From positions 32,001-96,000 of the forward strand of contig JAEOTM010000041.1 in assembly GCA_016839815.1 (NCBI GenBank): DNA of 64,000 nucleotides, given 5' to 3'. Below the pieces are notes generated by a model. It was not told the DNA's origin. It made no database searches and saw only the letters and a list, made by a program, of their open reading frames with translations. Shown here in pieces: positions 47,435 to 60,391 of the stretch; position 1 is the first letter of the stretch; every line of letters begins with the position of its first letter. Both the position numbers and the translations under genes were made by a program. This stretch comes from Candidatus Hodarchaeota archaeon (GTDB taxonomy: Archaea; Asgardarchaeota; Heimdallarchaeia; Hodarchaeales; Hodarchaeaceae).

Positions 47435-48346
47435 ATGAGGATAATAAAAGGGAATTGGTTTATCTTAATTATTTTAATCGTACTAGGAACTAATATTACT
47501 ATCCTCTCAAGTGGTAATTCAGCCCTTTCATTTACAACAGATTCTCGTTATAATTATGCCGTATCATGCACTGACTATTGTGGATCAAGAGTTTGGGATG
47601 CAACCAATCTAGATGCAGATCTATTCTTTATCATTACCAGCATAAGCGAATTAGATGATGTGGTATCAATATATACACGATATAACAGCACATCACTCGC
47701 AAATCACGACAATCCTGACTACGGAATTTACACATTGAATGAATCTTATTCTTATTTATCGAGGGAGAGTAAGACAATGAATGGGAAATATTCTTGGCAT
47801 TGGAGTACCCTCGAACCTACATTTAATATCTCAGTTCCCTCCTTCTTCCTTGCCCATGCTCATACAAGTTTCGAGAATAATAGTTTTCTCCTTCAAAGAA
47901 ATTCGAAACTGATAGATATCGAGATTTCATCTCAATATACCTTCCAGACATATCAATATTCAGGAAAATGGATACAAAGCTACATTGTAGGAAGTTCCAA
48001 TTTTATTGATGAAGCTACGCTTACTGCTTCATATGATCTGGAGACAGGAATCCTCTTACGAATGGAAATCGATATGATTTCTACCCAAATCCCCATTGGT
48101 CCACTTTCTTTAGAAATCAATGTCGATGCTGTGGGGTCCTTCAAAATAACTTTACTTCTGCCCTCGAATCAAACAACAGATGCGTTTGCTTTGATCGTAG
48201 GAATATTATCTCTAATATCTATTATCCTTTTTCTGAACAAACGAGATTCCAGATTTAACAAAGATCACCTGATCTATGAAGGAAAAGATATAATAAGGAT
48301 CTTCGATAAATCAGTATGCCACTACGATCGGTGCTTACAGGAATAA
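47435..48346 (+). CDS. Secreted, C-terminally anchored hypothetical protein
   Basis: N-terminal signal/TM, many NxS/T sequons, YDLETGILL motif, C-terminal TM. Confidence 0.7.
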   Translation: MRIIKGNWFILIILIVLGTNITILSSGNSALSFTTDSRYNYAVSCTDYCGSRVWDATNLDADLFFIITSISELDDVVSIYTRYNSTSLANHDNPDYGIYTLNESYSYLSRESKTMNGKYSWHWSTLEPTFNISVPSFFLAHAHTSFENNSFLLQRNSKLIDIEISSQYTFQTYQYSGKWIQSYIVGSSNFIDEATLTASYDLETGILLRMEIDMISTQIPIGPLSLEINVDAVGSFKITLLLPSNQTTDAFALIVGILSLISIILFLNKRDSRFNKDHLIYEGKDIIRIFDKSVCHYDRCLQE

Positions 48347-49753: not shown

Positions 49754-51910
49754 TTGGCAAAACTGAAGATAAATACACTAATTGGCTTAACTATTTTGAT
49801 AATCAGTATTTTTGGATATATAAACTTACAGATGGGTTTTAATATTGAAACTGTTAAAAATATTGGTGCTTTCCCAGTAGAAAGTTCACTTGAATCAAAT
49901 GATTTAGCTGTTGAAATAACCAAAAACTCATCTGCAATTGGTCCCAATTCGGTTATAGAATTCTCTATAAATTTAACTAATACTTTATCTGAATCCCTTT
50001 GGGACATTTCTGCGAATATAAGTGATATTTCTGAGGGTCTTTCACTTGTTCCATCAACTGAACCTTTATTCACTCTATCTTCTCTTGACCCTGACACTTC
50101 AACATCATTCCAGTTTATTACTAGTTTTTCGGGAGATGCTACCTCTAAACCTGTCGATTTAGTCTTAGCGATTGATGCCAGTAGTAGTATGGGAGAGGAA
50201 ATTAATACAGTAAAGACTGCACTAAATGATTTAATTACGACTCTTGTAACTGAAATCCCTCATCTAAGAATAGGTGTGATTGTTTTTGGATGGGGAGCTT
50301 ATGATCAGTATCCTACAGAAGATTCAAACAATTATTTACCACTCACCAATGACTTTGATGGTGTAAAGGCTATTATTAATTCTTTATACGCACAAGGAGG
50401 GATAGAACCCTGGGGTGATGCTCTGTACCTCGCTAGTACTTGGGATTGGAGAGAAGACGCCGCTAAACTGATAATATTAGTTGGTGACGAGGATTGTGAT
50501 CCAGGTATTTTTGTTGGCAATGAATTACTTGAATCTGATCCTAAGGGATATTATAATGGGTCAGATTTATTGAACATTGTCACCAATCTTAAAGATCAAG
50601 GGATCACGATCAGTACGGTCATCTGTGGAGGAGTATCAACACAAATGATTAATCAGTTTGAATGGGTTGCAGCATATACCGATGGAACATCAGTTTACCT
50701 TCCTGATTTAGAGATAGAAGGTATTGGTTTGCCTGAAATCATCGAGGAATGGACACTAGAGCTCGGGCGGGAATATAACCTCTACTTAAATTTAACTGTT
50801 GGTTGGGAAGACAATATGAATACCAGATACCATACATCCTACATCGAGAATTTTTGGCTTGATTTCTCTCCCCCATCGGTCATTATCTCAAAAACAATAA
50901 CTCCTACAGGAGTCGATTTATTCTCAGTTGAATTTTTTATCACTGTTGACGATATATCTCCTATCAGATCAGTTACTCTTTATCATGATGCCTCTGGGAT
51001 GTTAAAATCAGAAACATTGGCACCCATTGAGAATACTTCCTATTTTCTTTTCACTCTTCATGATGTTCAAGGAGGATTGAATATCTCATACTTTGTGAAA
51101 AGTTCAGATATTTTAAAAAATTCAGCATTTACGTCAGTGTATTGGGTTATTGTAGAGCCAAAATTTGATGAATTTGGTGAAGAAGTATCTTTTTGGGTCG
51201 AATCAAACAAAACAATTTATACAAATATAAAAATTGGGTCTACGGGTATTTATTATTTTGTTTTATCAGGTTCAACAGAAATATCTCAGATTGGTGTACA
51301 ATTAACAGCCCGAGTCACAAATACAACTGTTATTCCTATCCAAACCCAAGAAATAAATGTAAGTTCTTCATATAGTCATAAAATTTTCCAATTTAGTCTT
51401 GGATCAGGTGATCATGCGGTTACTCTGTCAATTCCGCAGAGTCTAGGAAACAGTTCATCATCCTACGTCTGGTTAAAACTTAAACACCCTCAGACAAACA
51501 GGTTTACTGGTTCAATGACAAATGCAATACGCGTTTATGGAATTGAGTGGGAAGCTACAAATGGATCATACTTCAGTTTTGATAATCAACCCGGTTCCCC
51601 TCTAGTATTGAAAGCAGAAGTTTACAGCAGTAATTGGGAGCTTGTATCTTCATTTATCGTTGGTGGAAGTTTTCAGGTCTCAAATAATGATACATATTAC
51701 CTTCTAGTTTGGGCAACTTTACGTGAAGGAGAATTCACCATTCAATTGACAGAGGAAGAGCCCGATACCACTTATGATCCTTATTATACTTACGAACCTA
51801 CTGAATATGCTGCTGATGGTGCGAATGCACCTTTCTACCTAGAAATCATCTTGTTTCTGACTATAATTGGTCTAATACGGATAAATGTCAAGAAGAAAAG
51901 AAAATCGTAG
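49754..51910 (+). CDS. Cell-surface vWA (MIDAS) protein with Ig-like domains and C-terminal TM anchor
   Basis: Signal peptide; PVDLVLAIDASSSM (DxSxS); LRIGVIVF; WREDAAKLIILVGD; beta-rich stalk; TM then KKKRKS. Confidence 0.88.
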   Translation: MAKLKINTLIGLTILIISIFGYINLQMGFNIETVKNIGAFPVESSLESNDLAVEITKNSSAIGPNSVIEFSINLTNTLSESLWDISANISDISEGLSLVPSTEPLFTLSSLDPDTSTSFQFITSFSGDATSKPVDLVLAIDASSSMGEEINTVKTALNDLITTLVTEIPHLRIGVIVFGWGAYDQYPTEDSNNYLPLTNDFDGVKAIINSLYAQGGIEPWGDALYLASTWDWREDAAKLIILVGDEDCDPGIFVGNELLESDPKGYYNGSDLLNIVTNLKDQGITISTVICGGVSTQMINQFEWVAAYTDGTSVYLPDLEIEGIGLPEIIEEWTLELGREYNLYLNLTVGWEDNMNTRYHTSYIENFWLDFSPPSVIISKTITPTGVDLFSVEFFITVDDISPIRSVTLYHDASGMLKSETLAPIENTSYFLFTLHDVQGGLNISYFVKSSDILKNSAFTSVYWVIVEPKFDEFGEEVSFWVESNKTIYTNIKIGSTGIYYFVLSGSTEISQIGVQLTARVTNTTVIPIQTQEINVSSSYSHKIFQFSLGSGDHAVTLSIPQSLGNSSSSYVWLKLKHPQTNRFTGSMTNAIRVYGIEWEATNGSYFSFDNQPGSPLVLKAEVYSSNWELVSSFIVGGSFQVSNNDTYYLLVWATLREGEFTIQLTEEEPDTTYDPYYTYEPTEYAADGANAPFYLEIILFLTIIGLIRINVKKKRKS

Positions 51911-51958: not shown

Positions 51959-54298
51959 ATGAATACTGCTAAATTTTCTTCACTCTTCATCAATTTTCTA
52001 TTAATAGCCAATTTATTTCTATCTATACCAAGTAACAGGGCTGTAGTGTTAGAAGAAGCTGATTATTCTAAGAAAATATTACAGAAGGGATCACGAGCCA
52101 GTTCTGCTGGACAGTTTTTAATTGGGCACACATCGGAGGTTTGGGATGTAGAGTTTTCTCCCGATGGTCACCTCCTTGCCTCGGTCTCTTCAGATAATTC
52201 GATTATAATTTGGAATACTACAACAGGATCTATCCACCAGAATCTGACTGGGCATCAGGATTCCGTTTATACAGTCACTTTTCATCCCCATGATCCGATC
52301 ATTGCTTCAGGATCCTTTGATCGTTCAATACTTATCTGGAATTTAACTACAGGGGAAATAATGCAAAATCTTAGAGGCCATACTGCTTCTATTTGGTCTT
52401 TAGATTTCAGTCCTGACGGTACATATCTTGCATCAGGTTCTGGGGATTCAACTGTAAGAATCTGGGATTACAGGACATCAGAATCATTCTTTAATGCCAC
52501 AGGTCACACAGAAGCCGTACGATCAGTTCATTTTCTTCCTAATGGATTGTTAGCTTCTGGTTCATACGATAATAGTATTCTATTATGGAATTTGACGGGA
52601 AAAACGCTTGAAACCGTCCTATCGAATAATACCGATAATATTCTCACCCTTGCAGCAAATCCATCAGAGAATATTCTAGTTTCAGGATCCCAAGACAATC
52701 TAATGGAATTCTGGGATTTAACCCAGTTTGGAGTTAGAAGTCGTGCTGCAATCACAACCATTGATTGGATTAGGGGACTTGCATTTAGTCACAATGGTTA
52801 CTACCTTGCCTCGGGACTACAAAATGGAAATATCAGTATTTGGGAAGGAAAGTCAGGTTTTCATGTTAAAACACTAACAGGCCATGCTCAATCAGTGCGA
52901 GGAGTGGATTTCCATCCTACAAAACCGCTACTTGCCTCTGCATCGGGAGATCATACTGTTAGACTGTGGAACGTAACTGATTTAGACAATGATCAGGTGC
53001 CTGATTTTTGGGAACTTGAAAATGGATTAAGTCCCCAAGATGCAGATGATATGTCCAATGACCCCGATGATGATGGGTTGGTTAATATATTAGAGTATAA
53101 ATTTGGTACAAATCCTCATCTGGCCGATAGTGATCTGGATCAGATTTCAGATTATTATGAATTTATTTACGGTATGAATGGTAGCTTAGATGATGCTAAT
53201 GGAGATATCGACAATGATGGTATGTCCAATCTTTACGAATTTCAAAATAATCTAAACTCTGCGATAAATGATACTATGATGGATGCAGATAATGATGGAA
53301 TGCCGAATCTTTATGAGTATCTTAATGGGCTTGAAGCAGGAAAAGACGATGCAAACGATGATTTAGATAATGATGGATTACCAAATATCTTTGAATTCCG
53401 ATATGATTTTGTGATTGGCATCGATGATGGAGAAGATGATGCAGATTCTGACGGTTTAAGTAATAGAGAAGAATTTTTGCTGGGTACAAATCCAAGAGAT
53501 CCCGACAGTGATAACGATTTTTTCAATGATGGTTTAGAAAAGATGTTTGGAACTGACCCAAATAACTTCTTTTTAAATCCAATAACAATACTTTTTGGAA
53601 TAATATTAGTCATATCATGTATTTTACTTATTATTATCGGTCTTATCAAAAGCTACCCGAGAATAAAGGTAAAATCTTCTGAGATTAGTAAAGAAATCCA
53701 AGTAAGAACGAAAGATACCATTGAATATTTCCGGCCTAAACCACATCAGACATGGATTCGTGATTTACAAATGGGAAAAGCGATACACCTTGATTCACTT
53801 ACTTCAGAACTCGAAACAAGTAAAATTAAACTCCCCAAGGCCATTAAAGAGTCATTACGTCCACAAGATTTGATTAAACATTCACTTGTCCAACGATCAG
53901 ACATGATATTGTTACAGTCAATCCCACCAAAGGATGCTAATTGCCAAGTATGTATCGGAGAAATACATGATGAACAATATTTTCAATGTGAATCCTGCAA
54001 ACGATTTGTATGCATTTCTGATTATGTTGATTTAGTCACAGTTGACTCAAACAATTGCCCAAATTGTTCTGGGGGTTTAGTCATATTTCCTTTTAGTTGT
54101 AAGGGATGTGGGATAGATTACAGTTCAGTGATTGAGCTTTCAGGAAAATCGGGGTGTCCCATATGTGGCTACACACTAACCGATCAACAAAAACTTATAG
54201 ATAATGTAACAGCCGATATACAGCCATCTAAAATTTCAAAATCACTTCAAAGGGATAATATGCTTAAAAGAGAACAAGAAGATAAGAAAATAAAATAG
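51959..54298 (+). CDS. Single-pass protein: signal peptide, 7 WD40 repeats, 8 DxDxDG-type repeats, TM, cytoplasmic Cys-rich Zn-finger region
   Basis: Seven GH...WN/WD-type repeats, D-x-D-x-D-G..N..E repeats, ILFGIILVISCILLIIIGLI TM, five CxxC plus one CxxD. Confidence 0.9.
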   Translation: MNTAKFSSLFINFLLIANLFLSIPSNRAVVLEEADYSKKILQKGSRASSAGQFLIGHTSEVWDVEFSPDGHLLASVSSDNSIIIWNTTTGSIHQNLTGHQDSVYTVTFHPHDPIIASGSFDRSILIWNLTTGEIMQNLRGHTASIWSLDFSPDGTYLASGSGDSTVRIWDYRTSESFFNATGHTEAVRSVHFLPNGLLASGSYDNSILLWNLTGKTLETVLSNNTDNILTLAANPSENILVSGSQDNLMEFWDLTQFGVRSRAAITTIDWIRGLAFSHNGYYLASGLQNGNISIWEGKSGFHVKTLTGHAQSVRGVDFHPTKPLLASASGDHTVRLWNVTDLDNDQVPDFWELENGLSPQDADDMSNDPDDDGLVNILEYKFGTNPHLADSDLDQISDYYEFIYGMNGSLDDANGDIDNDGMSNLYEFQNNLNSAINDTMMDADNDGMPNLYEYLNGLEAGKDDANDDLDNDGLPNIFEFRYDFVIGIDDGEDDADSDGLSNREEFLLGTNPRDPDSDNDFFNDGLEKMFGTDPNNFFLNPITILFGIILVISCILLIIIGLIKSYPRIKVKSSEISKEIQVRTKDTIEYFRPKPHQTWIRDLQMGKAIHLDSLTSELETSKIKLPKAIKESLRPQDLIKHSLVQRSDMILLQSIPPKDANCQVCIGEIHDEQYFQCESCKRFVCISDYVDLVTVDSNNCPNCSGGLVIFPFSCKGCGIDYSSVIELSGKSGCPICGYTLTDQQKLIDNVTADIQPSKISKSLQRDNMLKREQEDKKIK
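52979..53570 (+). repeat. Eight Asp-rich Ca-binding (TSP3-like/DxDxDG) protein repeats of about 22-27 aa
   Basis: DLDNDQ, DPDDDG, DSDLDQ, DIDNDG, DADNDG, DLDNDG, DADSDG, DSDNDF. Confidence 0.85.
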
Positions 54299-56816: not shown

Positions 56817-57212
56817 TTGTTTTTGGAGTTTAATTTGTTGAAAGTACGCGGTTTTTGTCCTTTTCGGGTTGAAATACCGGACCATCTTCCAGGCTGCGTA
56901 TTACAAAAAGGTACTGAATCACAGTGCTATTCCACTGATGAACGGCCCTTAGTGCACCGCGATACGAGCTATTATTGCCCCCTTCTCCCACAAGTGTTAA
57001 TCTCAGTAGAACTGTTTAAGGATTTTGAACAGCTCGTAGATTATATCTTTACGATTCAAGATAGAGAAAACACGACGATTAATATTTGGCCAATGCTTAC
57101 AGGAATTGCTAATTCAAAAAATAAAGCAAAAACTCCAAAAGGAATAGCCATGGAAAAATTAAGTATTAAGGTGAGGGAAGAATTAAATGAAATTATCTTT
57201 GAGATGGATTGA
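56817..57212 (+). CDS. Unknown four-Cys small protein, paralogue A (upstream of the actin pair)
   Basis: Clear paralogy with 60005..60391 (RGFCPFRVE, GCVL, CYS.D.RPL, YYCPL, INIWPML.G); start may be TTG 56835 or 56838. Confidence 0.85.
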   Translation: MFLEFNLLKVRGFCPFRVEIPDHLPGCVLQKGTESQCYSTDERPLVHRDTSYYCPLLPQVLISVELFKDFEQLVDYIFTIQDRENTTINIWPMLTGIANSKNKAKTPKGIAMEKLSIKVREELNEIIFEMD

Positions 57213-57299: not shown

Positions 57300-58469
57300 A
57301 TGGATTTGAAAACTCTAGTGATGGAATTTGGTACAAATGAGATACGAATTGGGTTTGTAGACGATCAACAACCTCAGATAGTGATACCAGCACTTATTGA
57401 GTCAACAAAAAGTATTGATTTTTGCCGAAACGAAGCTACAATAGACAAATGGAACTTTCAACTCAAATATCCTGTAATAGCGCGAAATATTGTACACTGG
57501 GATTCACTAGCTGAAATTTTAACACGGGTTTTTGAAGATGAGCTTAATTTAAAGGTTGAAAACTGCCGCATTCTTCTTATCTGGCCATTTTTTATTCAAG
57601 TCGATTATTTCGATATTCTGGCAAAGTTATTCTTTGAGAAAATGAAAGTTGCTGGTTTAATTGTGATATATGGAGAAATTCTAGCATTATATTATTTAAA
57701 CCACCCCACAGGAGTAGTTATAGATATAGGGGAAGGATACACGAGTGTTGTACCAATTGTGAATAGACACGCAATTGAACATGCATACAGAAGGAGTGAC
57801 ATCTCTGGACGGAAGATAACTTCTTCAATGCAAAGGTTACTCAATCAAAAATATAGAGATATCCCCTTGAGTCTGAAGATTGTCCAAGAGATCAAAGAGA
57901 AATATTGTTATATCGCAGAGGATTATCTGAAAGAGACAATGCTGGTAGAGAAGCTTGAAACGAAATTTGTAAGGAATCACAGACTGGATACTGACCGAAC
58001 CATTTCTCTCCTCACAGAGCGATTCATGACACTTGAGTGCATTTTTACCCCTAGTTTAATCGGCCTTTCAGAATTGGGACTCCACGCGACACTCGTTCTA
58101 TCGATCAATGCCTGTCCAACAGAAATCCAATCAACAATATCTAGTAACATTTTCTTAATAGGAGGGACTTCTCAAGTACCTGGTTTATCCCAACGACTCC
58201 ACACAGAACTTATTGGAAATCCAATCACTGTACCTAAAAAGGGAGGGGAGACTAAACAATACCAAATCCCTACTGACATCGAACTAAATATTACTATTCC
58301 TCCAAAACCTTCACTTTCAACATGGCTTGGTGGAGCTAAATTGGGTAGACTGGTAACATCAACTAAAACTCACAAGATTTGGATAACAAAAGAAGACTAC
58401 CGACATGAAGGAATTAAGGTTTTTGAGAAAAATCTGTCTAATGTCTTCCAGCTAATTGCAGAGGAATAG
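57300..58469 (+). CDS. Divergent actin-family protein 1 (Asgard actin-related)
   Basis: LKYP, TGVVIDIGEG, VVPI, IKEKYCY, ERF, SINAC, NIFLIGGTS..PGL..RL, TWLGG, WITKEDY. Confidence 0.92.
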   Translation: MDLKTLVMEFGTNEIRIGFVDDQQPQIVIPALIESTKSIDFCRNEATIDKWNFQLKYPVIARNIVHWDSLAEILTRVFEDELNLKVENCRILLIWPFFIQVDYFDILAKLFFEKMKVAGLIVIYGEILALYYLNHPTGVVIDIGEGYTSVVPIVNRHAIEHAYRRSDISGRKITSSMQRLLNQKYRDIPLSLKIVQEIKEKYCYIAEDYLKETMLVEKLETKFVRNHRLDTDRTISLLTERFMTLECIFTPSLIGLSELGLHATLVLSINACPTEIQSTISSNIFLIGGTSQVPGLSQRLHTELIGNPITVPKKGGETKQYQIPTDIELNITIPPKPSLSTWLGGAKLGRLVTSTKTHKIWITKEDYRHEGIKVFEKNLSNVFQLIAEE

Positions 58470-58522: not shown

Positions 58523-59893
58523 ATGAGAAAAATGGTGTATTTCGAAAAACCATCAAATGATAAATCAAGATCAAACCCAATGCAGAGATATAATAATTTA
58601 ATTTCCGAATGGGTGGAAAAGCATCGTTGGGACCTTCAAGTCATGAGTGGGAGAAATCAATTCCCTCCAAGACAAACAAAACTGCAAAATTGCCCTAAAT
58701 GTGGAAAAAAGTTTACAGAAAACCATATTCAACAATGTCTTTATTATACAACCTATCAGGAACCTCTTCATAAACAAATAGCTGTAATCATTAACGGATC
58801 TTCTTTCTCGGTAAATGGATTTGTCGGGGAAAATGATTTTAGATCTATATTTCCCACGCTAGTAGGCCAAAGAACCGAGTCACCAATAATCCTTGAAGGG
58901 GAACCAACCATAGAATGGTATGTTGGGGCGGATGCAAATAACTTCCGAGGGTCACTTCAACAACACAAACTAATCGAGAATGGACAGATTACGAATTGGG
59001 TAGCACTAGAAAAACTATGGGCATTTACATTTCATCAATCTTTCAAAGGATATCCACCTGATTATCCTGTAATTTTATCAGAATTAGATACTAGTAACAA
59101 GAAAACGCGAGAGAAAATGATACAGACAATGTTTGAAATTTTTAATGTTCCAGCATTATACATTGAAAGACAAGCTGTATTAGCTCTCAAGGCCTTAGGG
59201 AAAGAAACAGGTCTTATTGTGGATTTAGGAAAAGATCAATGTCGTATAGTCCCCATTATAAAAGGAAGGATAATTGAAGAGAACCTAGGAGTAATGAATC
59301 TTGGAGGAGATGATGTTACAAATTATCTTCAGAGTCTACTCATTCCTCAAATTAATAAAGAATTCTGGTCAGATAGTTACCAATTGTATTCAACAATGAA
59401 TGATATCAAGAAAAAATATTGCTTTATTGTACAACAACCGAAAGAAGAAAATTTAGATCCAAGTATTATGAATAGCCCCCTAAAAAGAGTGGAAAACATC
59501 TTTTTACCGAATGGGGATTCAATTGCATTATTTGACGAACGATTTCTTGCTCCTGAGGTTTTATTCCAACCTGATCTCATCGAATGTTCTGAACCACCCT
59601 TACACAAGATGATTCTTTATACCATCGATCACTTTGAAGAGGATATTAAATCCATTTTCTATCGAAATATTATACTCTCGGGAGGTTCGTCACTGTTTCC
59701 AGGGTTGATAGAAAGAATTCAATTTGAACTAACCTCTCTATACCCTAATGAACATTTAAAAATAGTTGCGGAACCAGACCGACGTTTTTTGGCATGGAGA
59801 GGTGCATCAAAAATCACTCCTCAATTGTTCAAGTCCATCTGTATCCAGAAAAGTGAATATTTGAATAATGGACCAAGGGTATACGATCTTTGA
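58523..59893 (+). CDS. Divergent actin-family protein 2 with N-terminal Zn-finger-like extension
   Basis: IFPTLVG, YVGADA, IENGQITNW, REKM.Q.MFE.FNVPALY, QAVLAL, ERFLAPEVLFQP, NIILSGGS.LFPG, AW.G, EY..NGP. Confidence 0.95.
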   Translation: MRKMVYFEKPSNDKSRSNPMQRYNNLISEWVEKHRWDLQVMSGRNQFPPRQTKLQNCPKCGKKFTENHIQQCLYYTTYQEPLHKQIAVIINGSSFSVNGFVGENDFRSIFPTLVGQRTESPIILEGEPTIEWYVGADANNFRGSLQQHKLIENGQITNWVALEKLWAFTFHQSFKGYPPDYPVILSELDTSNKKTREKMIQTMFEIFNVPALYIERQAVLALKALGKETGLIVDLGKDQCRIVPIIKGRIIEENLGVMNLGGDDVTNYLQSLLIPQINKEFWSDSYQLYSTMNDIKKKYCFIVQQPKEENLDPSIMNSPLKRVENIFLPNGDSIALFDERFLAPEVLFQPDLIECSEPPLHKMILYTIDHFEEDIKSIFYRNIILSGGSSLFPGLIERIQFELTSLYPNEHLKIVAEPDRRFLAWRGASKITPQLFKSICIQKSEYLNNGPRVYDL

Positions 59894-60004
59894 AAATTGA
59901 ATATGGAATGTATTGACAGATTCTAATAAGATGATTTTTGTCGGTAAATGTTCGGAGAGATTCTCGAGATTACACTTAAATATTATCTCTCCCTAGCTTC
60001 TTTG

Positions 60005-60391
60005 ATGCAGATACTCGAACGTGGTTTTTGTCCTTTCCGAGTGGAGAAGAGTAACTTTCATGCGGGTTGTGTTCTTCGCATTGGGCAAACCACACTTTGT
60101 TATAGTCAGGATGTACGTCCATTGTTACGCCGTGGAACAGCTCCTGAAGAGTATTACTGCCCTTTAATTAAATTTTCTCTGGATGACACAACATACAAGG
60201 AATTTGAACAAGTTTTATCTCCTTTACTCCAAATCCAAGATGAGCAAAATACAGCCATCAATATCTGGCCCATGCTTTCTGGTTGGGCCGATCCTAAACA
60301 TGAAGCTACGTCTGATGAAGGTCGTCAAATCGTTCACTTAAGTGGACAAGTCAAGGCGGCTCTTGAATCCATTGTTTATAATCTTAGCTAG
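60005..60391 (+). CDS. Unknown four-Cys small protein, paralogue B (downstream of the actin pair)
   Basis: Paralogue of 56817..57212; ATG 60005 matches the start of the shared region and follows TATA-like cttaaata (59975-59982); ORF track start is 59948. Confidence 0.85.
   Translation: MQILERGFCPFRVEKSNFHAGCVLRIGQTTLCYSQDVRPLLRRGTAPEEYYCPLIKFSLDDTTYKEFEQVLSPLLQIQDEQNTAINIWPMLSGWADPKHEATSDEGRQIVHLSGQVKAALESIVYNLS

Follow-up and report, generated by a model that had tools for sequence, protein, structure and literature searches.

The window, meaning the whole 64,000-nucleotide stretch of Candidatus Hodarchaeota archaeon DNA analyzed here, contains a gene for a vWA-domain surface protein followed directly by a gene for a type I membrane protein with a RING-like cytoplasmic tail (Table 1). 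The vWA gene has a TTG start with a GGAG element immediately 5' of it, and the reading frame drawn in the first-pass annotation is present together with every motif quoted from it. The hydrophobic segment at the N terminus of the vWA protein is predicted from its sequence to be cleaved.

Table 1. Features of the vWA gene and its 3' neighbor in the window (positions count from the first nucleotide of the window)
Feature	Position	Strand	Remarks
vWA surface protein gene	49754..51910	+	718 aa, 13 N-glycosylation sequons; 71 homologues
Hydrophobic N-terminal signal segment, aa 1-27	49754..49834	+	From sequence; helix 6-27 in AlphaFold2 model
Split CARDB/DUF11-type Ig domain, N-terminal part (strands A-E, aa 48-127)	49895..50134	+	
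vWA domain, aa 132-338	50147..50767	+	MIDAS D141, S143, S145, E218, D245; invariant EPW and GDEDCD motifs
Beta-hairpin, aa 339-371, read as strands F and G of the split Ig domain	50768..50866	+	From model; pairing putative
Second Ig-like domain, aa 372-468	50867..51157	+	Related to repeats of large surface proteins of the same genome
Two more beta-rich domains, ~aa 475-575 and 580-668	51176..51757	+	AlphaFold2 model
Low-confidence acidic/Thr linker, PGF-like motif (APF), hydrophobic helix, basic end	51758..51907	+	~8 cytoplasmic residues
Partner gene, 779-aa type I membrane protein	51959..54298	+	48 nt downstream of vWA gene
Partner: extracellular seven-repeat WD40 propeller, aa 50-342	52106..52984	+	
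Partner: bacterial TSP3-type calcium-binding repeats, aa 343-540	52985..53578	+	PF18884, 35 bits
Partner: transmembrane helix, aa 542-560	53582..53638	+	
Partner: cytoplasmic RING-like finger (C662, C665, C677, C680, C685, D688, C700, C703) and zinc ribbon (C714-C736)	53939..54166	+	

The vWA domain scored above the Pfam cutoff (PF00092, 36.2 bits, E 9e-9). An AlphaFold2 model of the protein from a 71-row alignment (pLDDT 84) contained six strands before the vWA domain (51-57, 67-76, 82-90, 96-100, 106-111, and 116-125), the vWA domain at 134-336, and then a strand pair (340-352 and 358-370) followed by three beta domains and a helix at the C terminus. When the N-terminal parts of the homologues were scanned, CARDB and DUF11 matches appeared in 19 and 13 of the 71 members, respectively, at E values up to 0.1 (best 1e-4), which are below the cutoff. 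The pre-vWA part of the homologues matched CARDB positions 2-71 of 101 and DUF11 positions 1-86 of 114 with the last two strands missing, and its alignment to Asgard CARDB domains reached position 75 of 106 (hhalign 93%). With residues 46-372 modeled alone, both post-vWA strands kept a pLDDT of 91-92; we counted this hairpin, confident without the downstream domains, in favor of an insertion, since a free hairpin is unlikely to hold such pLDDT. Because the pre-vWA match ends at the point where F and G would be expected to start and the hairpin stays confident alone, it is very probable that the vWA domain is inserted in an Ig-like domain, as had been proposed from the letters of the sequence. 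The interrupted fold is of the CARDB/DUF11 type, with strands A-E before the vWA domain and two strands after it that would complete the fold.

Pairing of F and G with the remainder of the sandwich is not demonstrated by sequence, because joining the segments on either side of the vWA domain gave a score against Asgard CARDB domains (40.2) that was no improvement on those of control segments (38 to 48). Covariation over 136 rows (effective 88) was mostly noise and lacked a C-F signal, and a spliced HMM found the Ig domain nowhere in the genome in uninterrupted form. We also observed that C248 is invariant in 71 of 71 members; it lies beside the MIDAS Asp in an acidic motif (aa 245-249, window 50486-50500), has no invariant disulfide partner, and is possibly an extra metal ligand or a reactive site. 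More than 20 Ig-like repeats related to the second Ig domain make up part of a 3,524-aa protein of the same genome (G000 C196:96806-107377), and larger Ig-repeat surface proteins (P0092, 2,257 aa; P0115, 1,032 aa), one of them with a PGF tail, contain the DUF11-plus-vWA module as well.

The named homologues among the 71 are nearly all from Asgard archaea, mainly Hodarchaeales. Across 301 Asgard genomes, the full-length form (~700 aa) was present in 12 of 21 genomes of family f1, which includes the source genome, and in 19/28, 8/11, and 2/7 genomes of families f3, f7, and f27, respectively, with the remaining Asgard matches being mostly shorter vWA-only proteins. Families f1, f3, and f7 belong to one class (Heimdallarchaeia), and named records place f1 in the Hodarchaeales. 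The source genome, which is 7.8% contaminated, encodes a second copy without a receptor neighbor (P0041, G000 C34:7027-9144), and this two-copy arrangement recurs in another genome, G193 (L059 and L062). Our literature searches found no published description of the vWA family or of its pairing with a RING protein. An Asgard "integrin beta 4-like" family, fam15271, has been reported to adjoin tubulin/FtsZ genes (PMC9258230), a context that we did not see around the vWA family studied here.

The C terminus had been described as a transmembrane stalk, but the motif, helix, and basic end, along with an archaeosortase in the genome, make a sorting and anchoring tail likelier. The tail is probably of the archaeosortase type and may be processed as such. 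PGF-CTERM and Heimdall-CTERM proteins have the same layout of motif, helix, and basic end, although the motif is degenerate in the query; PGF itself was found in 11 of 71 members and PGL in 1 of 71, and 3 of 71 matched the Heimdall-CTERM model (NF045529) weakly. More than 20 Heimdall-CTERM-type proteins exceed the cutoff in the source genome. No sortase was found with PF09721, but TIGR04178 did find an archaeosortase, and 41 of 41 genomes in the class encode one (source copy at G000 C6:43808). As the tail would be a sorting anchor, the vWA protein is probably unable to signal alone.

Comparison with integrin beta revealed a shared metal site in a different setting. The MIDAS is highly conserved (D141 in 68 of 71 members; S143, S145, E218, and D245 each in 70 of 71), and in an alignment with beta-6 (E 0.0035) it has the same register as that of integrin beta and is of the Glu type, the Glu and Asp corresponding to E220 and D251 of beta-3. 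A Glu-type MIDAS was common in the prokaryotic vWA domains that we retrieved. The SyMBS ligands (D158, N215, and D217 in beta-3) are absent from the family, in which position 180 is W, S, or C and a short GGxE loop has no Asp. At the ADMIDAS position, where integrin beta has a pair of Asp residues, E149 is kept in 69 of 71 members and E148 is variable. The integrin beta profile PF00362 gave 16.3 bits, below the gathering threshold of 24.8, over positions 2-47 of 248, compared with 26 to 48 bits on other prokaryotic vWA domains. Consistent with what the first-pass annotation had said of PSI, EGF, and the tail, no PSI, I-EGF, or beta-tail domain occurred among the 25 best Pfam hits of the 71 members, which have 1 to 6 Cys per protein, and a cytoplasmic NPxY tail is absent, the family tails ending in a short basic cluster.

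The comparison with integrin headpieces proposed in the first-pass annotation gave a divided answer. Integrin beta headpieces were the top Foldseek matches (E ~1e-11), but they superposed with rmsd values of 8 to 19 Å and TM scores of 0.40 to 0.47, about level with ITIH1 and SpaC. Superposition of the head on integrin beta PDB chains (e.g., beta-3, beta-6, and beta-8) likewise gave rmsd values of 7 to 15 Å. In the best rigid match to beta-3 (model 48-327 versus chain 80-391; rmsd 7.4), the strands flanking beta-I coincide with strands D-E and F-G of the Hodarchaeota protein, in which the rest of the sandwich lies before the vWA domain; in integrins it lies after. In the beta-1 sequence, the A'-B motif alone precedes beta-I and the D-E motif comes after it. 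The vWA protein has its insertion after strand E, with ~80 aa (A-E) on the N-terminal side and 33 aa on the C-terminal side, whereas integrin beta has its insertion after strand B, the greater part of its hybrid sandwich coming after beta-I. A hairpin of F and G would place the exit of the stalk at the vWA end of the sandwich, leaving the integrin hybrid lever without a counterpart.

On these grounds, the integrin-beta head topology first assigned to the protein is not supported if taken strictly: the vWA domain is inserted at another point, the SyMBS is missing, and the stalk would exit elsewhere. The protein shares with an integrin beta headpiece a vWA domain with a DxSxS...E...D MIDAS, Ig-sandwich strands on either side, and a possible propeller partner, but it differs in the absence of the SyMBS, the disulfide-rich domains, and the NPxY tail, and in its sorting-type anchor. 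We conclude that the vWA protein is not a member of the integrin beta family and is integrin-like in outline only. We strongly infer that insertion of the vWA domain into the E-F loop occurred independently of the integrin insertion.

A closer prokaryotic counterpart of the integrin arrangement emerged from a search for relatives in 1.8 billion representatives and GTDB genomes. Relatives with the EPWGD motif were found in other Asgard lineages and in Thermoplasmatota. A different vWA protein, P0113, scored 48 bits on PF00362 versus 16 for the query and has 111 relatives, the named ones including Anaerolineae, Clostridiales, and Thermoplasmatota. In P0113 and several relatives, the vWA domain is preceded by a two-strand lead-in that can be aligned to beta-1 and followed by the remainder of the Ig domain; P0113-type proteins also keep a GxxDxPE loop. 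These features and membership of a separate clade distinguish P0113-type proteins from the query family. The first-pass annotation had called for a vWA phylogeny with integrins, and our stepping-stone search for such sequences in eukaryotes gave none with an integrin name. A 157-row tree run without integrins or CglD placed the query family (SH-aLRT 98) among other archaeal vWA domains and apart from the P0113-type clade (98), and grouping the two was rejected with a p-AU of 0.0002 (quick tree, LG+G4). For the origin of the integrin headpiece, the P0113-type family offers a better prokaryotic point of comparison than the query family does. As a separate observation, P0113 and P0217-P0322 represent a widespread prokaryotic vWA family, several members of which have an integrin-type split hybrid domain. 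An Asgard surface protein of ~1,000 aa (L131; G293, family f11) has a vWA domain in the P0113-type clade with different flanks, and its PF00362 score of 26.6 bits passes the cutoff.

Other proteins combine a vWA domain with a beta-sandwich. VIA-align lists were filled by the vWA domain alone, with a best Z of 21 (TFIIH p44) and integrin chains at Z 16 to 17. The ITIH1 heavy chain (6fpy/6fpz), SpaC, PilB, PitA, RrgA, and archaeal ArnB/VWA2 have a vWA domain in or on a beta-sandwich and matched at Z 16 to 20.5 (ITIH1 6fpz: Z 20.5, rmsd 4.9, 222 residues aligned), but their host domains differ from that of the vWA protein, and to our knowledge none has this tail or a RING partner. Myxococcus CglD (10.1101/2023.10.19.562135), a Trichodesmium protein (PMC3192720), and the P0113-type proteins are likewise secreted or anchored vWA proteins with a Glu-type MIDAS and beta-sandwich flanks.

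The 3' neighbor of the vWA gene is a type I protein with a RING or RING-like tail in 10 of 13 f1, 7 of 8 f7, and 16 of 16 f3 genomes, or 33 of 37 in total. We had considered the WD40 neighbor as mere local synteny, a reading overturned by these wider loci from 37 genomes. Gaps between same-direction genes were mostly -4 to 54 nt. The f1 partner, with WD40 and TSP3-type repeats, is codirectional with the vWA gene in some genomes, and in six Hodarchaeales genomes it is flipped to face the vWA gene while still adjacent to it; convergent orientation excludes cotranscription in those genomes. The f7 partner (~1,005 aa) has a DxDxD loop and an FG-GAP-like lead (0.88, under the 0.9 mark). In f3, the gap is ~5 nt and the partner has a 270-aa ectodomain for which the ESM Atlas gave nothing. 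The partner tails are related across the three families (hhalign 98%, 76%, and 52%), and we detected no mutual similarity or shared motif among the three partner ectodomains, all of which are acidic or have calcium-loop motifs. The zf-RING_2 profile matched the window partner at E 0.44, with Asp at ligand 6, and the f3 partners at 27.3 to 29.7 bits (cutoff 27.3).

In a control for chance adjacency within the source genome, a RING-like 3' neighbor was found for 1 of 118 C-terminally anchored surface genes, that one being the vWA gene, and the partner is the only RING-like protein among 15 type I proteins with long tails. There are 7 to 29 RING genes per genome, and the source genome has genes for ubiquitin and E2 enzymes. 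A contig end truncates one f1 partner ahead of its tail, and three genomes have the partner as two separate ORFs. An adjacent partner is lacking for second copies (G000 C34, L062, L067, and L068) and in three Hodarchaeales genomes. Separately, among the loci L017, L054, and L060, a 1,550-aa single-pass protein with no Pfam hit lies 3' of the vWA gene in two Hodarchaeales genomes, and the WD40-RING-like orthologue lies ~8 kb further on in G102. Two more distant members, one named Promethearchaeota, adjoin membrane-bound HTH regulators rather than RING proteins. At L080, L138, and L139, the neighbors consist of an ectodomain, a helix, and an HVO_0163-type HTH.

ZNRF3/RNF43 and the PA-TM-RING proteins are eukaryotic ligases in which an ectodomain, one helix, and a cytoplasmic RING follow one another, and the partners have the same arrangement. 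They differ in the ligand order of the finger (C4-H2-C2 or C5-D-C2) and in their WD40, FG-GAP-like, or other ectodomains, and they are putative ligases.

A model of the vWA ectodomain with the partner WD40 domain, computed with the partner repeats left out, scored 0.46 against 0.00 for the best control (runs of 0.46, 0.50, and 0.00), with contact agreement of at least 0%, a partner pLDDT of at least 84, and no interface given. The mark was reached by 58 of 80 solved and 2 of 110 mismatched pairs. Because few of the solved pairs (7 of 80) but both of the passing mismatches reached the mark with a score of 0.60 or below, the model gives weak support for physical binding of the vWA protein to its partner.

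Our best reading is that the pair forms a candidate two-chain, ubiquitin-linked surface receptor of Heimdallarchaeia, with a partner that would act as a ligase. The vWA protein would be exported and held by its sorting tail, probably after archaeosortase processing, without a signaling tail of its own. Its vWA domain, very probably placed between strands E and F of a CARDB/DUF11 Ig domain, would use the MIDAS to bind Mg or Mn and capture an acidic residue of a ligand, as vWA biochemistry suggests. The chain would work with the adjacent single-pass receptor, to which it is linked in the genome and with which it may associate, and the RING-type tail of the partner may recruit ubiquitin-loaded E2, coupling binding outside to ubiquitination inside. 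We consider it somewhat more probable than otherwise that an acidic ligand outside the cell is bound at the metal site of the vWA chain and that the partner turns this binding into ubiquitination. More tentatively, and with slightly less than an even chance in our estimation, Heimdallarchaeia may possess a heterodimeric receptor of a MIDAS-vWA chain and a propeller-type chain, an integrin-like layout reached independently that signals by ubiquitination and has exchangeable ectodomains and outputs (RING or HTH). Several observations weigh against a two-chain model: a single conserved interface is difficult to envisage when the partner ectodomains are unrelated, the finger of the window partner is atypical, the partner is split in some genomes, cotranscription is excluded where the genes converge, and copies without an adjacent partner exist. 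Moreover, linkage may reflect one ancestral event kept by inertia, since the genomes within a family are kin.

The main rival, which we regard as distinctly less likely than the receptor pair but the most serious of its competitors, is a stand-alone anchored adhesin like RrgA/SpaC or myxobacterial CglB/CglD, whose neighbor is coregulated or indirectly controls its turnover. Insertion of a vWA domain in an Ig domain is a recurring adhesin design, and SpaC, PilB, PitA, and ITIH1 score like integrins; paralogues without a partner, a tail common to many surface proteins of the source genome, and weak CglD matches in 14 members also fit an adhesin. These points must be set against a pairing that is unique among the 118 anchored surface genes, has outlasted inversion and ectodomain replacement, and recurs with an HTH output. 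It is quite improbable that the vWA chain is instead the ligand or chaperone of its partner, with the MIDAS gripping an acidic stretch of the partner in cis (e.g., the Asp-rich repeats) and holding it inactive until displaced or shed. The acidic or calcium-loop ectodomains of all three families would suit such a grip, and, whatever the fold of the partner, a MIDAS face that does not vary could recognize a short acidic motif, but no motif common to the ectodomains was detected, and the complex model, with the repeats left out, gave no interface.

About as improbable, in our view, is that the protein is a genuine archaeal orthologue or precursor of integrin beta that pairs with an alpha-like propeller chain. 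The Glu-type MIDAS, WR motif, and LPLT match to beta-6, the first rank of beta headpieces in Foldseek, and the partner propeller in two families, including the f7 lead below the mark with its DxDxD loop, could be read this way. Against them stand the partial, subcutoff PF00362 match that other prokaryotic vWA domains surpass, the insertion after strand E, the missing SyMBS, disulfide-rich domains, and tail, and a separate prokaryotic clade with integrin-type flanks; in addition, the propeller of the window partner is a WD40, and the f3 partner ectodomain is short and unrelated.

Cultured Asgard archaea adhere and crawl, and their surface is decorated with proteins of unassigned role (PMC13716822); that paper never mentions vWA or integrin. 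The vWA family is a specific surface candidate in the lineage closest to eukaryotes, and the linked RING receptor would tie binding outside the cell to the Asgard ubiquitin system. A tempting inference is corrected as well, in that the vWA family is most unlikely to be the integrin beta ancestor.

Elsewhere in the window, two tandem actin-family genes (57300-58469 and 58523-59893, +; Pfam 200 and 242 bits) are flanked by two small related Cys-containing ORFs (56817-57212 and 59948-60391). The product of the second actin-family gene has a Cys-containing extension at its N terminus. At two other loci (L014 and L015), both small Cys-containing ORFs are adjacent with no actin genes in between. Two genes upstream of the vWA gene, the window encodes a 303-aa protein (47435-48346, +) that looks secreted, has a helix at its C terminus, and gave no Pfam hit.
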